Below the pieces are notes generated by a model, which saw only the letters and a list, made by a program, of their open reading frames with translations, was not told where the DNA came from and ran no database searches. This document shows, piece by piece, positions 1 to 5,177 of a DNA stretch of 5,359 nucleotides; position 1 is the stretch's first letter, and each line of letters starts with the position of its first letter. This DNA comes from Promethearchaeota archaeon (GTDB lineage: Archaea; Asgardarchaeota; Thorarchaeia; Thorarchaeales; Thorarchaeaceae): NCBI GenBank assembly GCA_027031765.1, contig JALVPN010000128.1, positions 1 to 5,359 on the forward strand, read 5' to 3'. Made by a program: the position numbers and the translations under genes.

Positions 1-70
1 TACGTGTCATGTACACAACTGTACACGTGGTTGCAATGAAGTGGACTCCGACCGCATGGAGCGAGTTCTG

Positions 71-1339
71 ATGGCGGGAAAGAATGGGTATGCGTTTGCA
101 GCCTGGACTGACTTCATTCAGGAGTCGCAGATACGGGCGCTCCTGAAGTACAAGGTGAAGTACTACTTTGCAGGTGGCATGCCGGGGATTGTCCCGACCG
201 ACGTCTTTGCGCAGATACTGGCCGGGCTCAGTGAGCGGTACAAGCAGGACCCAAAGCTTGCACTTGAGGACCTGAACTATGGGCCGACAGGGGGTAAGTC
301 ATGGTTCCTCAAGACACTGGCCGAGCGGATGAGACGGGTGCGCAACATCCCCCTCGACAAGGAGGAGGGGTGGAAGTCGATGTCAATAACGAACGGGTCA
401 CAGCAGGCCCTGTACGCGCTCCTGGACACCATGATTGATCCCGGCGACGTCATCATCACGCCCTCCCCTGCATATCTCGGGTTCCTCGTCCCGGCGGTCA
501 AGCTCGATGCCAGACTGATAACGGTGCCCACAGACCTTCACGGGGTCATACCGGAGAATGTGGAGGACGCCATCCAGGTCTCGAAGGCCCAGTTCGGCAG
601 GACACCAGACATCCTGTACTTGGTACCTGACTCTGACAACCCGAAAGGTACGACACTGCCACAGAAGCGGCGTCAGCAGCTGTTCGACATATGTGAGAAC
701 CATGACGTGCTCTTGGTTGAAGACTCGGCCTATGCAGAGATCCAGTTCAAGCCCAACCCCAAGCCCATCAAGTCCCTTGACAAGGAGAACACAAGGGTTG
801 CATACCTAGGTACTACGAGCAAGGAGGCAGCAGTGCTACGGGTGGGCTACTCGGTGCTACCAGACAAGGTGCGCGAACAGGTGTTGAAAGACAAGGGCTA
901 CTTGGATCTGTGCACCTCAACGCTGGTACAGCGCATCCTCGACGAGTACTACAGGAACTACATCGATGAAGCGATGAGGCGCGGCGTGCCCCTGTACAGA
1001 CTGCGCTACGAGGCCATGGCGAAAGCGATTGACGAGTCGTTCCCGGCTGGCACACGCACGGATCCCACAGGTGGGTTCTTCATCTGGTGGCAGAGCGAGA
1101 AGCCCTTCGACAGTAGCAGGTTCATGGAAGAGGTCGCAATCCCAAATGACCTACTCTACGTACCGGGTGGGCCGTTCTACCCCATGAGGGGGTACTCCCT
1201 GTCCGATGATGGCAAGACACTTGTACGCAGCAAGCCCGAACGGAACACGATGCGACTCGGCTTCTCATATGTCGAGCCGAGACTGATCACAGAGGGCATA
1301 ACGAAGTTGGGTAGACTGCTCACTGAAGAGCTCGGGTGA
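71..1339 (+). CDS. PLP-dependent aminotransferase, class I/II (fold type I; LysN/2-aminoadipate or aromatic aminotransferase-like, no HTH domain)
   Basis: Motifs seen in translation: SQIRALLK..YFAGGMPG (cf. SxIRELLK..ISLAGGLP), ITNGSQQAL, PAYLG, VPDSDNPKG (NPxG), LVEDSAY (D-x-x-Y), YLGTTSK with the putative PLP lysine at nt 821-823, LRVGY, GGFFIW, and NTMRLGFS (substrate-binding Arg). The ORF is open from GTG 41, with in-frame ATGs at 56 and 71. ATG 71 best matches the usual N-terminal length and has a weak GGAG upstream; the start is uncertain. Substrate cannot be assigned from sequence. Confidence 0.9.
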   Translation: MAGKNGYAFAAWTDFIQESQIRALLKYKVKYYFAGGMPGIVPTDVFAQILAGLSERYKQDPKLALEDLNYGPTGGKSWFLKTLAERMRRVRNIPLDKEEGWKSMSITNGSQQALYALLDTMIDPGDVIITPSPAYLGFLVPAVKLDARLITVPTDLHGVIPENVEDAIQVSKAQFGRTPDILYLVPDSDNPKGTTLPQKRRQQLFDICENHDVLLVEDSAYAEIQFKPNPKPIKSLDKENTRVAYLGTTSKEAAVLRVGYSVLPDKVREQVLKDKGYLDLCTSTLVQRILDEYYRNYIDEAMRRGVPLYRLRYEAMAKAIDESFPAGTRTDPTGGFFIWWQSEKPFDSSRFMEEVAIPNDLLYVPGGPFYPMRGYSLSDDGKTLVRSKPERNTMRLGFSYVEPRLITEGITKLGRLLTEELG

Positions 1340-1452: not shown

Positions 1453-3174
1453 TCACACAATGAAGTTCACAAACAGCAGGGCACCATTCTTCAGCTGGGG
1501 GACGTATGCCCTCATGTAGGGACCGAACAGGTCACGCAGACTTGCATTGATAGCCCACTCGACCCAGCACCACGAGGACTCTTGGCCGAGCTTGCCGCTG
1601 GCAAACTGACCAAAGGTCCAACTGAGGTACCGTTCAATGCCAAGACGAAGCGATGTCAGGTCGGGGTCCCGGTGGGCCTTCTTCGCACGGACCTCCCTGA
1701 CCGTGTCAGCGAGCATATCGTTGAGCGCCCTGTGTACGTCCAGCAGCAGGGAGCGTGTGTCGGCAAGGGCGGTGTTCATCTCGTCCCAGCGGCCCGTCTT
1801 GCGTGCCTTGGTCGCCGCCCCGACGAGTCTGAACAGGTCCGGACTGTGGAGGACCCTTGTGCCACGCCCGGCCAGTGTACGGGCCAAGGCCTCATTCCAG
1901 GGCGTATTGAAGTACACACGGGGGTACTTCACAAAGACTGGGAAGGGCACGCCCATGGACCTTGCTGCTGGGATGACCTGTGCGTAGTATGCGGTCTCAC
2001 CAGGTCCCCCAACGTGTACGCTCACCGGCAAGACCATGTCGATGGCGAACTGTCGTGAGTCGACCCTGGGCGAGATGTACTGGGCCACATCCGAGAGGTC
2101 GGGGTCCCGGGCTGAGACCTCGATTGTCACACGGCCACCACACGACGGACAAGAGCCCTCCAGCACTGCCATGCTATCAGACCCGCGGTACGACAGTTCC
2201 GTCCTCGCACAATGGCATCCCGGCTCCTGACACTCATAGAAGAACGGCACGTAGTCAGGACGACGCCGTCCAATGCCCGGGGACATCCCCGCGTCGATGA
2301 CCATGTCCGTAGCAGCCGAGTGCCCCTCAAGGAACCGGATGCGGTTGTCACGCTGGAGGAGGTACGCCATACCGGAGGCCATCATCTCGCGCATGTCAGG
2401 GTCAGACGCAGTGAGGATGGGGATCCCAAGGTCGCCCTCGACATTGAACAGTCGGGCCCATATGCGCAGCGACCACTCACCCAGTGTGGACGAGTTGACG
2501 AACGCATGCCTGACGATACTAAGGGCGTGTTCAAGGCGTTCTTCGAAGACTGTACGCTCTGTGCCCTGCATGCCGTGGAACAACGCTCTGTAGCCTGTAC
2601 GTATGCCGTCCTCGACGCCGCGGTACCACTCGTAGTCTGGGAGGGGCAGCACACGCACTGGCGAGAAGGAGTACTCTGTCGGCACTGGGACACTGATGAG
2701 GTTGCCGCCGCTGCCCATCAGTGGCGTGCGGGTGTTCACGAGCTCGCTCTGTACAGTGTCGTAGTCCGCTGCAAAGAAGAATGGTACGAGGGGCTGGTCT
2801 GTTTCACGGGCCATGCAGGCGATAACAGAGGCGCACACAGCCTTGTTCAGGACAAAGCACGGGCCCCCCATCGCGACCGTCTGGTGTGCAGCCTCGACAG
2901 CACCGAGGCCTATCCCCTCGATGTTCTTCAGGACGCGGGGTGTCAGAGCTGAGAGGGCACGGTTCGTCCTCCGCAGGGCCCTCTTTAGCCCCGAGAGCCG
3001 GGCACCCGTGTGCCACCCCTCGGTACGGTACCGTGTGATGACCTCTCTCGCGCGCTCGGCAGCCAGTCCGAGTGACACGGGTGGTGTGTCGTACAGTCGC
3101 TCTGCGAGTGCGGCCATATTGCCATCCCATATGAAGGCGTCATAGACAGTCCCCACGCTGGTCTGCCTTGCCAT
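1453..3174 (-). CDS. bshC: Bacillithiol biosynthesis cysteine-adding enzyme BshC homolog (divergent, with a Cys-rich insertion)
   Basis: ~573 aa. AVEAAHQTVAMGGPCFVLNKAV matches BshC VVTGQQxGLFxGPLYxIYKA; PLVPFFFAADYD matches PVVPVFWxAxEDHD; ISPRVDSRQFAIDMVLPVSVHVGGPGETAYYAQ..PFPV matches SPNVxLRPLxQxxxLPxxAYVGGPGExAYxAQ..PMP; the C-terminal helical region and GQES match xQER. It lies directly downstream of bshA. ATG 3174 is 6 nt from GGAGGTGA; the adjacent GTG 3177 is the alternative start. Confidence 0.85.
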   Translation of the reverse strand: MARQTSVGTVYDAFIWDGNMAALAERLYDTPPVSLGLAAERAREVITRYRTEGWHTGARLSGLKRALRRTNRALSALTPRVLKNIEGIGLGAVEAAHQTVAMGGPCFVLNKAVCASVIACMARETDQPLVPFFFAADYDTVQSELVNTRTPLMGSGGNLISVPVPTEYSFSPVRVLPLPDYEWYRGVEDGIRTGYRALFHGMQGTERTVFEERLEHALSIVRHAFVNSSTLGEWSLRIWARLFNVEGDLGIPILTASDPDMREMMASGMAYLLQRDNRIRFLEGHSAATDMVIDAGMSPGIGRRRPDYVPFFYECQEPGCHCARTELSYRGSDSMAVLEGSCPSCGGRVTIEVSARDPDLSDVAQYISPRVDSRQFAIDMVLPVSVHVGGPGETAYYAQVIPAARSMGVPFPVFVKYPRVYFNTPWNEALARTLAGRGTRVLHSPDLFRLVGAATKARKTGRWDEMNTALADTRSLLLDVHRALNDMLADTVREVRAKKAHRDPDLTSLRLGIERYLSWTFGQFASGKLGQESSWCWVEWAINASLRDLFGPYMRAYVPQLKNGALLFVNFIV

Positions 3175-3180
3175 CACCTG

Positions 3181-3188
3181 TCACCTCC
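3181..3188 (-). promoter_or_regulatory. Shine-Dalgarno site for bshC (GGAGGTGA), overlapping the bshA TAG stop
   Basis: The minus strand reads TAG-GAGGTGA-CAG-GTG-ATG. GGAGGTGA is a perfect complement of the 16S rRNA 3' TCACCTCC. This supports bshA-bshC co-transcription and translational coupling. Confidence 0.85.
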
Positions 3189-4351
3189 TAACTCGCGACG
3201 ACCGACTCGAAGACCTGCTCGTACTCCCCGACCACACGGTCGGCAGAGAAGCGTTCGACCACACGGCGCCTGCCAGCCTCAGACAGACGGGCCCGCAAAT
3301 CCTCATCATCAACAAGGTCGAGGACTGCGGCGACGAGCTCGTCCTGTCCGAAGCCCTTGGTGACAACGCCGTCGACGCCCGGCCTGACGAGTTCTGTGAC
3401 CCCGCCTGCCGGAGTGGTGACCACTGGCAGGCCGCAGGCCATGGCCTCAAGGAGTACGAGGGGCATGCCCTCAAGGGTCGAGTTGAGTACGAACACGTCA
3501 GCGGCGCACATGATACCCTCCATGTTGCTACGCACTCCCAGCAGGTGCACGTTGTCACACAGGTCCAGACGTTCGACTGCACGTTCCACCTCGACCCTAG
3601 TAGGACCGTCCCCCACAATCACAAGGCGTGTATTGGGGCGGTGGTCAACAATGACACGCATTGCTTCCACGAGGCCGACCACACGCTTGACGCGCCTGAA
3701 GTTCGAGGCGTGGAGGAGGACGGCCTCGTCGGGGTCGATTGCTGCTGCGGGTGGGCGCGGACGGACGGACACGCAGCCGTTCTCGACTACGATACACATC
3801 TTCCTGCCAGGTGCGAACCTGTCAACATCGACGAAGTTGGGGATGACCCGGATCTCGCGCCTGACACCGAGGTCTCGGGCCGCACGCTGTCTGAGGAACT
3901 CGGTGACAGAGGTGACTGCGTCAGCTGCCTCGACGACGTGACGCACGACTGGCCTGTAGGCTGGGTCGAGGCCAAGGGTGTGGACATCAGAGCCATGAAG
4001 AGTGACAACGTATGGGAGGCCTGCAATCTCCCGGGCGAGAAAGGCGGAAACAGCATGGGGGATGGCATAGTGCGAGTGCACGATGTCGAGGCCCGGGTCA
4101 TGCGCGCACTTCACAATCTTGGAGGCGAGGGCCATGGTGTATGGGGGGCCGGTGTCGCAGAATAGAGGGTAGTCGATGGTGTCCACGAGGTCGACGTGGA
4201 CGCCGGGTGTCTGTTCCCACATGAGTGAGAAGGGGCGCTGGTACGTGATGAAGTGAACTGTGTGTCCCCTCTCAGCCAGGTGTTGTCCGAGACGTGTAGC
4301 AAGATACCCCGAGCCGCCCACAGTGGGGTAGAGGTTGATTCCAATCCTCAA
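3188..4351 (-). CDS. bshA: N-acetyl-alpha-D-glucosaminyl L-malate synthase BshA (GT4 glycosyltransferase)
   Basis: 387 aa, TTG start. MRIGINLYPTVGGSGYLATRLGQHLAERGHTVHFIT matches BshA [36 protein letters not shown]. Also PPYTMALASKI, DIVHSHYAIPHAVSAFLA, TLHGSD, PNFVD, PDEAVLLHASNFRRVKRV, and the GT4 E-x7-E motif (EGMPLVLLEAMACG). Adjacent to bshC. Confidence 0.92.
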   Translation of the reverse strand: MRIGINLYPTVGGSGYLATRLGQHLAERGHTVHFITYQRPFSLMWEQTPGVHVDLVDTIDYPLFCDTGPPYTMALASKIVKCAHDPGLDIVHSHYAIPHAVSAFLAREIAGLPYVVTLHGSDVHTLGLDPAYRPVVRHVVEAADAVTSVTEFLRQRAARDLGVRREIRVIPNFVDVDRFAPGRKMCIVVENGCVSVRPRPPAAAIDPDEAVLLHASNFRRVKRVVGLVEAMRVIVDHRPNTRLVIVGDGPTRVEVERAVERLDLCDNVHLLGVRSNMEGIMCAADVFVLNSTLEGMPLVLLEAMACGLPVVTTPAGGVTELVRPGVDGVVTKGFGQDELVAAVLDLVDDEDLRARLSEAGRRRVVERFSADRVVGEYEQVFESVVAS

Positions 4352-4385
4352 TCACTGCACCGTATCAGTGTAGGCCTGAGAGCCT

Positions 4386-4396
4386 GCCTTTAAGGC
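4386..4396. promoter_or_regulatory. Palindromic TATA-like box (GCCTT-T-AAGGC) in the divergent bshA/bshB intergenic region
   Basis: One of only two AT-rich cores in 4352-4505. It reads CTTAAAG on the minus strand, about 38 nt upstream of the bshA TTG, which fits an archaeal TATA box plus a short leader. It reads TTTAAG on the plus strand. No clear BRE is visible. Confidence 0.4.
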
Positions 4397-4505
4397 CGAT
4401 GGTCGGGGTCAAGACCGTCATACAGTAGTGTCACGAATAGTGCCAACACTTTTTTTTCGGGGGACTCTGCACTACCCGTGGGAGACCAGACGAGGAACAG
4501 GAACA

Positions 4506-5177
4506 ATGACAGGAACAGATGGACAGTGCGTGCTTGTGGTGACGGCCCATCCGGATGATGAGTGTCTTGGTGCAGGGGGGACAATAGCAGCGCATGTGGA
4601 CCGTGGTGTTGTGGTCGACGTGGTGTGTCTCACTGGCAGTCCGGAGAGGAACCGTGAGCTGAGAGAGGCCTGCAGGAGGCTCGGAGTACGCAGTGTCAGG
4701 GTCAGTGAGAGGGGCGACTTCGACCTCGGGCCATCTCTGATACCCGAAGTGGTCAGCGCCCTCCTAGAGATGAGGCCTGCCGCAGTTATCACCCATTCCG
4801 AAGTCGACTACAACAGGGCCCACGTGGAGTGCGCACGCATTGTGAGTGAGGCGGCGGAGTGGGCCGCTCATGTCACAGTGCATGGAGAGAGTGCCCACAG
4901 GGTACAGCACATCTATGAGATGGAGGTCAACTCCATGTTCTCATGCCCACATGTGCTGGTTGACACTACAGACTCCTTCGAGAGGGCGCTCAGCGCACTC
5001 ACTGCACACAGGTCACAACTGGAGAAAGCGGGTGGCTACTACCGGCGACTGTTCGATGCAAAGACCCGCCTGCGTGGAGTCCAGGCTGCGTGTGAGCGGG
5101 CTGAGGCGTTCATGGTCCGCCGACTCGGGCACGCTGGGCCCTTCTACGCGGAGAACAGTGTGGGGCTTCTGGTATGA
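4506..5177 (+). CDS. bshB: PIG-L/LmbE-family Zn-dependent deacetylase; probable GlcNAc-malate deacetylase (BshB-like)
   Basis: VLVVTAHPDDECLGAGGTIA (Zn motif H-P-D-D at nt 4548-4559), VCLT, R-x-x-E-x-x-x-A-x-x-x-LG, RPAAVITH, second motif DYNRAH (normally DxHPDH), HRSQL (YxSQ), and RGVQAACERAEAF (cf. BshB1 RGxxxGxxYAEGF). The family call is strong; the BshB role rests on gene context. ATG 4506 (223 aa) is preferred over the track's GTG 4428 because the extra 26 aa do not resemble the family. Confidence 0.8.
   Translation: MTGTDGQCVLVVTAHPDDECLGAGGTIAAHVDRGVVVDVVCLTGSPERNRELREACRRLGVRSVRVSERGDFDLGPSLIPEVVSALLEMRPAAVITHSEVDYNRAHVECARIVSEAAEWAAHVTVHGESAHRVQHIYEMEVNSMFSCPHVLVDTTDSFERALSALTAHRSQLEKAGGYYRRLFDAKTRLRGVQAACERAEAFMVRRLGHAGPFYAENSVGLLV

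Follow-up and report, generated by a model that had tools for sequence, protein, structure and literature searches.

A predicted four-cysteine metal ribbon in the BshC-like proteins of Asgard archaea and its likeness to class I lysyl-tRNA synthetase

BshC of Bacillus subtilis (YllA, structure 4WBD), class I lysyl-tRNA synthetase (LysRS-I) and the bacterial glutamyl-tRNA synthetase (GluRS, class Ib) are the described systems closest to an archaeal BshC-like protein whose four-cysteine motif is the subject of this work. In GluRS, the acceptor-binding domain has a structural zinc site placed in an insertion of the Rossmann core, which is variable between lineages and dispensable or lost in some of them; its CxCx24C site has been described, and work on its dispensability cited (PMC12088422). 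The archaeal protein is encoded on the minus strand (1453..3177) of contig JALVPN010000128.1 from Promethearchaeota archaeon (Thorarchaeaceae, assembly GCA_027031765.1), of which the stretch analysed, hereafter the window, comprises 5,359 nucleotides. It shares the fold of 4WBD, which was the sole match in sequence searches of the PDB with either the protein or the profile of its family, at about 15% identity. Where the archaeal protein has a Cys4 ribbon, 4WBD displays a Cys-free hairpin that is approximately 12 residues shorter. The archaeal protein belongs to a large sister group of BshC within the archaea, which comprises Thorarchaeota, other Asgard archaea and Bathyarchaeia. A literature search, which did not cover the crystallographic study of BshC (VanDuinen et al. 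2015), returned neither a description of a zinc site in BshC nor a link between BshC and LysRS-I.

The minus strand of positions 2140-2232 encodes 31 residues with the pattern C316-x4-C321-x-C323-x19-C343-x2-C346, in exact agreement with a preliminary description of this DNA (all residue numbers are counted from the GTG start at 3177, and are possibly one too high). These residues comprise a first knuckle, C316-x4-C321 (2215..2232, minus strand), and a second knuckle of the CPxC type, C343-P-S-C346 (2140..2151, minus strand), which aligns with the C-x2-C-G of Asgard LysRS-I. In an alignment of 21 homologues having 49-55% identity to the BshC-like protein (alignment A1), C316, C321, C343 and C346 are unchanging. 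A scan of species-representative genomes, seeded with a 12-sequence alignment, yielded 80 homologous loci, 67 of the Asgard type (most titled Thorarchaeota, some Promethearchaeota or Hermodarchaeota) and 13 of the Bathyarchaeia type, and the complete C-x4-C...C-x2-C pattern was present in all 80, a conservation far above chance. The fifth cysteine, C323 (2209..2211, minus strand), had been counted as part of the cluster, but it is a lineage-specific residue outside the site: it is conserved neither in alignment A1 nor in the clade, and with N, H, Y, F, K, R and other residues aligned to it, a role as fifth ligand or as half of a CxC redox pair was ruled out.

The wider family was sampled by an exhaustive search without profile over 1.8 billion cluster representatives, which gave 46 representatives at E <1e-30, followed by a wide gap and then by canonical BshC at E 1e-12 or weaker. 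An alignment of 97 full-length representatives comprised 29 sequences of the near clade, 63 canonical sequences (among them two proteins named BshC, one from a Bacillota species and one from a Rhodothermaceae bacterium) and five of a second ribbon group. C316 and C343 are present in all 29 near-clade representatives and C346 in 28, with an Asp in the remaining one. The first knuckle, compared over 28 near-clade cluster representatives, is more variable, being C-x4-C in nine, C-x2-C in eight, C-x-C in two and C-x2-D in seven, with a His candidate in two; the second ligand of this knuckle is thus C, D or H, at a spacing of x1, x2 or x4. Four cysteines are found in 19 of these 28 sequences and an Asp or His as second ligand in nine, one of which has an Asp at the fourth ligand too, and the nine variants constitute a single well-supported subclade in the tree. 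Since a whole subclade carries these substitutions, the conserved residues probably act as metal ligands, rather than in a thiol relay or a disulfide-based switch.

None of the 63 canonical BshC representatives has the Cys pairs, all of them displaying the shorter Cys-free hairpin, and the corresponding region of 4WBD is free of cysteine, in line with the preliminary description, which supposed that Bacillus BshC has no such cluster. The motif is thus absent from canonical BshC, but universal among the archaeal proteins that NCBI labels BshC, so that in this annotated subset it is already common, an outcome that the preliminary description had listed as speaking against it. The second ribbon clade (P0204, P0205, P0240, P0247 and P0267) carries VPFW-x-x-C-x-C...C-x2-C at the same position and, with 100% support, groups as the sister of the clade that contains the archaeal BshC-like protein. 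In an unrooted maximum-likelihood tree, the 34 ribbon-bearing sequences (29 plus 5) are separated from 45 sampled canonical sequences by one long branch (Shimodaira-Hasegawa-like approximate likelihood ratio test, SH-aLRT, 100), and the archaeal BshC-like protein is separated by this long, fully supported branch from every canonical BshC.

In the AlphaFold model of the full protein, residues 312-355 (2113..2244, minus strand) are folded as a subdomain of four beta-strands in two hairpins (strands 312-315, 325-332, 336-342 and 349-355), and the turn of each hairpin carries one of the Cys pairs. The predicted local distance difference test (pLDDT) score averages 77.7 for the full protein and is about 90 across residues 310-360; the ribbon segment modelled alone adopts the same four-strand fold with a pLDDT of 92.6. 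Strand-knuckle-strand occurs twice in both models, which is the layout of a zinc ribbon, and since the turns of its two hairpins bear four conserved ligands, the element is indeed of the zinc-ribbon type proposed from the sequence. The shapes nearest to the isolated ribbon are the zinc ribbons of RNA polymerase I A12.2, NrdR, ZPR1, TFIIS/RPB9-type and CPxCG proteins, with scores that are not significant, the domain being too small. A search of the ESM Atlas with the ribbon placed its own family on top, followed by generic zinc-ribbon clusters, and no LysRS-I cluster was among the matches; Pfam returned for the ribbon alone only zinc-finger matches below threshold (reverse gyrase zinc finger, E 0.0095). 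A segment of a Chloroflexota cluster of 382-aa hypothetical proteins also matches the ribbon model (template modelling, TM, score 0.69), better than the generic zinc ribbons do, which makes the cluster a candidate for one more relative of the group formed by LysRS-I and BshC.

Based on these results, residues 312-355 are best read as a structural ribbon, probably binding Zn(II), which was inherited from a common ancestor of BshC and LysRS-I and lost in canonical bacterial BshC, a reading to which we assign a probability of about 0.68. C316 and C321 together with C343 and C346 would form a tetrahedral metal site that joins the tips of the two hairpins, the metal being most likely Zn(II) in a structural role, and this site would stiffen the hairpin inserted into the class-I-synthetase-like Rossmann core after its third strand and ahead of its fourth. 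R325 (2203..2205, minus strand), located on the strand that follows the first knuckle, is carried by this hairpin and probably reaches the substrate pocket, as it is the only residue of the segment that is invariant in bacterial and archaeal BshC (Arg in 29/29 archaeal-clade and 62/63 canonical representatives, and present in 4WBD). The ribbon would be ancestral to the BshC family and LysRS-I and have been kept in Asgard archaea, Bathyarchaeia and the second archaeal-type clade; it would have been lost toward canonical bacterial BshC, whose shorter Cys-free hairpin presumably does an equivalent job. The variability of the GluRS zinc site offers a precedent for such a loss. The enzyme itself most likely couples the amine of glucosaminyl-malate (GlcN-Mal) to an amino acid in activated form, which by analogy would be cysteine. 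Among the possibilities raised in the preliminary description, the retention of an ancestral synthetase-like feature is the one that fits best.

The relation to LysRS-I was examined by comparison with the synthetase of the same genome (G000:C41, 334.6 bits on PF01921), which has P-x4-C-x2-C-G, 29 residues and C-x2-C-G at the site aligned with the ribbon. The same Cys motif is present in most Asgard LysRS-I, with 7 of 30 sequences having no Cys pattern. Outside the BshC family LysRS-I is the closest fold by a wide margin, and in HHalign the profile of the archaeal BshC-like clade aligned over 208 columns to that of Asgard LysRS-I (probability 75%, E 2.4e-5). This alignment pairs H-Q...GGP with the HIGH region, A-D-Y-D with D-D-Y-D and S-P-R-V-D with T-W-R-V-D, as well as C316 with the first LysRS cysteine and the pair C343/C346 with the second LysRS knuckle; a sub-alignment extends to the next strand and its G-x-G motif. 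Both families thus share one order of landmarks: HIGH-like, DYD, ribbon, RVD, and a strand with G-x-G. Canonical bacterial BshC gave no match to LysRS-I in HHalign; its motif is D-H-D, in contrast to the D-Y-D of the archaeal protein and of LysRS-I.

The BshC-like protein differs from a lysyl-tRNA synthetase in several respects. It matches neither PF01921, even at E up to 10, nor TIGR00467. HIGH is replaced by H-Q...GGP, and a KMSKS-like loop is absent. The helical cage that binds the anticodon in LysRS-I is replaced by a coiled-coil-like helical C-terminus: the full model has long helices at 446-522, the last 50 residues have a pLDDT <50, and there is no Pfam match to the coiled-coil dimerisation domain PF24850. 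The spacings also differ, with x4 in the first knuckle and 21 residues between the knuckles, compared with x2 and 29-33 residues in Asgard LysRS-I.

Several observations weigh against an inherited zinc ribbon in a BshC enzyme. The HHalign probability falls to about 2% once the ribbon is removed or its cysteines are masked; since the signal is gone without the cysteines, the LysRS-I profile link is not independent evidence that the ribbons are homologous, and their residue-level homology rests on position, collinearity and fold, not on an independent sequence signal. The structure search with the isolated ribbon model did not retrieve LysRS-I of P. horikoshii (1IRX), which weakens the link to LysRS-I, and 1IRX itself has, at residues about 173-207, C-x2-H...C-x3-H instead of Cys4; we take these Cys/His knuckles to be the ones that bind Zn. 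Because the tree is unrooted, a loss in bacteria depends on LysRS-I serving as the outgroup. Knuckles of the CPxC type are just as characteristic of iron sites like that of rubredoxin, and judged by sequence iron could be bound instead of zinc. The protein scores 46.8 bits on the BshC equivalog model TIGR03998, under the cut-off of 265.8; scores of 30-73 bits are obtained for the archaeal near clade and of 425-515 bits for canonical BshC, whereas the second ribbon group does not match. BrxA/B (PF06491) and BrxC (PF11009) were not found in the 95%-complete genome of the same organism, and YpdA (TIGR04018) had no hit above its cut-off there, the best being a weak thioredoxin-reductase-like match of 75 bits against 339.9. 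With the TIGR03998 cut-off missed and these proteins not found, bacillithiol is no more than the presumed product. The preliminary description had likened the motif to the two-knuckle site of LysRS-I, and of this comparison the shared place in the order of landmarks stands, along with the fold preference for LysRS-I, but the sequence link is not independent of the motif itself.

Some of these findings speak for an independent origin, in which a hairpin of the archaeal branch gained its Cys pairs as a structural zinc ribbon and the likeness to LysRS-I is convergent. In bacterial BshC, too, this place is occupied by a hairpin, CxxC knuckles are easily gained and lost on hairpins, and the loss of the LysRS-I signal without the cysteines, the failure to retrieve 1IRX and the different knuckle spacings would all be expected. 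We nevertheless consider convergence unlikely. Subclades of the BshC-like family have a LysRS-like C-x2-C as first knuckle; P-[FY] before the ribbon and R-V-D and G-x-G after it are collinear in both families; LysRS-I is the nearest outside fold; and the grouping of the second, deep ribbon clade with the archaeal clade makes the ribbon old within the family.

A closer kinship can be imagined as well, in which the BshC family would be a direct offshoot of LysRS-I and the archaeal enzymes its living intermediates, still equipped with its metal ribbon and D-Y-D motif. Should the ribbon contact the acceptor end of a tRNA, as such insertions do in class Ib synthetases, the amino acid would be taken from aminoacyl-tRNA or activated in a tRNA-dependent manner. 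We hold this reading to be a little more doubtful than convergence. If it were true, the dependence on tRNA would explain the failure of adenosine triphosphate (ATP), cysteine and GlcN-Mal in vitro, and the zinc-stabilised archaeal orthologue would be the best protein for solving the BshC reaction.

Cys4 zinc sites serve as redox switches in some other proteins, and the product of the pathway is itself a redox buffer, so that oxidation of the thiolates could free the Zn, alter the activity and tie thiol synthesis to oxidative stress. Such a switch is improbable: a redox-inert Asp or His replaces one Cys throughout a subclade, bacterial BshC works without any cysteine at this place, and no regulator-like feature or extra reactive cysteine is conserved, C323 being specific to its lineage. 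Least probable of all is a rubredoxin-like iron or iron-sulphur (Fe-S) site, or a catalytic cysteine or persulfide relay. In its favour are the occurrence of CPxC knuckles in rubredoxins and a host of the anaerobe type, with many Fe-S proteins, and it would account for a BshC reaction that, according to reviews, has never been reconstituted and still lacks an identified cysteine donor (PMC5790435, PMC4360819). Canonical BshC, the very enzyme of the unsolved reaction, has however none of these cysteines, so that the motif is not the missing ingredient of the family chemistry, and a mononuclear site of structural kind agrees with both the Asp/His substitutions and the topology of the ribbon. The ribbon cysteines are indeed dispensable for that chemistry, since bacteria that make bacillithiol lack them; neither the redox switch nor the sulfur relay suggested in the preliminary description is pointed to by any of our results.

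In all likelihood the ribbon is an ordinary zinc site with a structural role, a finding that is useful rather than surprising. Its value lies in the evolutionary link and in the handle that it offers on an unsolved reaction, and there is no evidence of new chemistry. Together with the surrounding motifs, it ties the BshC family specifically to LysRS-I through an archaeal clade that has a complete bshA/bshB/bshC-type cluster, and places the family in an evolutionary frame in which a synthetase core was re-used as a sugar-amine ligase. It also flags R325 as a functional residue throughout the family, and the archaeal orthologue, being probably more rigid, should be useful for biochemical and structural work.

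Membership of the BshC family is indicated by a match to PF10079 of 49.4 bits (cut-off 27), which is limited to residues 215-416, and by the family-invariant residues (the Q of GxQ, GP, K, the D..E of (E)DxD..E, the hairpin Arg and GPGE..Y), all of which are present in the BshC-like protein and conserved in the 29 archaeal-clade and 63 canonical representatives. Canonical BshC thus keeps R325 and the remaining invariant residues despite having no ribbon cysteines. On the minus strand, H98-Q99...G104-G105 (2863..2886) comes after the first Rossmann strand, where LysRS-I has its HIGH region, with Q99 and G105 invariant in both clades, and D138-Y-D140 (2758..2766) follows the second strand, with D140 invariant family-wide and the motif aligned with DDYD of LysRS-I. 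Downstream of the ribbon, P370-R-V-D373 (2059..2070) is invariant in alignments A1 and A4 and aligned with W-R-V-D of LysRS-I. G390-G-P-G-E394 (1996..2010), after the fourth Rossmann strand, matches GPGE of 4WBD; G391, E394 and Y397 are invariant in both clades.

The window contains four genes. A class I/II aminotransferase gene (41-1339, plus strand) is convergent with the BshC-like gene, which encodes 574 aa from GTG 3177 or 573 aa from ATG 3174, the codon directly after it. The real start is probably ATG 3174, one codon past the GTG, because a Shine-Dalgarno-like box, GGAGGTGA, lies upstream, between the bshA stop and the BshC-like start (region 3172-3190), and because the protein is 573 aa long in its database entry. 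The gene is tightly coupled to bshA (3188..4351, minus strand), whose stop is 10 nt upstream of the BshC-like start. This bshA encodes a GT4 glycosyltransferase, N-acetylglucosaminyl-malate synthase, which scores 360.3 bits on TIGR03999, above the equivalog cut-off of 273.7. A PIG-L family de-N-acetylase gene (4428..5177, plus strand) is divergent from bshA; its product scores 67 bits on PF02585 and 82.8 bits on the BshB1 model TIGR04001, below the cut-off of 182.5, and is thus BshB-like but divergent.

This organization is widely conserved: bshA adjoins the BshC-like gene in 72 of the 80 loci, and the deacetylase gene is present in 66. Nearly all Thorarchaeota-type loci have the order bshB(-) / bshA(+) bshC(+) / aminotransferase(-), and the Bathyarchaeia-type loci have the same three bsh-type genes in a different order. 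The clustering of bshA, deacetylase and bshC-like genes supports a working three-step pathway leading to an aminoacyl-glucosaminyl-malate. These loci bear on the question whether Asgard archaea make a bacillithiol-like thiol. Bacillithiol has never been detected in archaea, and a bacillithiol-like thiol in Asgard archaea has been suggested from InterPro hits only (PMC7278568); a 2025 preprint, based on BLAST at strict thresholds, reported the full pathway in no archaeon. The aminotransferase gene occupies the same position in 62 of the 80 loci, all of the Thorarchaeota type, and is absent from the Bathyarchaeia-type loci. Its retention may stem from mere synteny between related genomes or from a functional tie to the pathway.

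One of the 13 Bathyarchaeia-type loci (L111:3101-4840), accompanied by bshA and the deacetylase gene, is located on a contig titled Krumholzibacteriaceae bacterium, which could be due to a binning error or to transfer into a bacterium. In the window, bshA and the divergent deacetylase gene are separated by a gap of only 76 bp (4352-4427), and both units therefore probably share one regulatory region.

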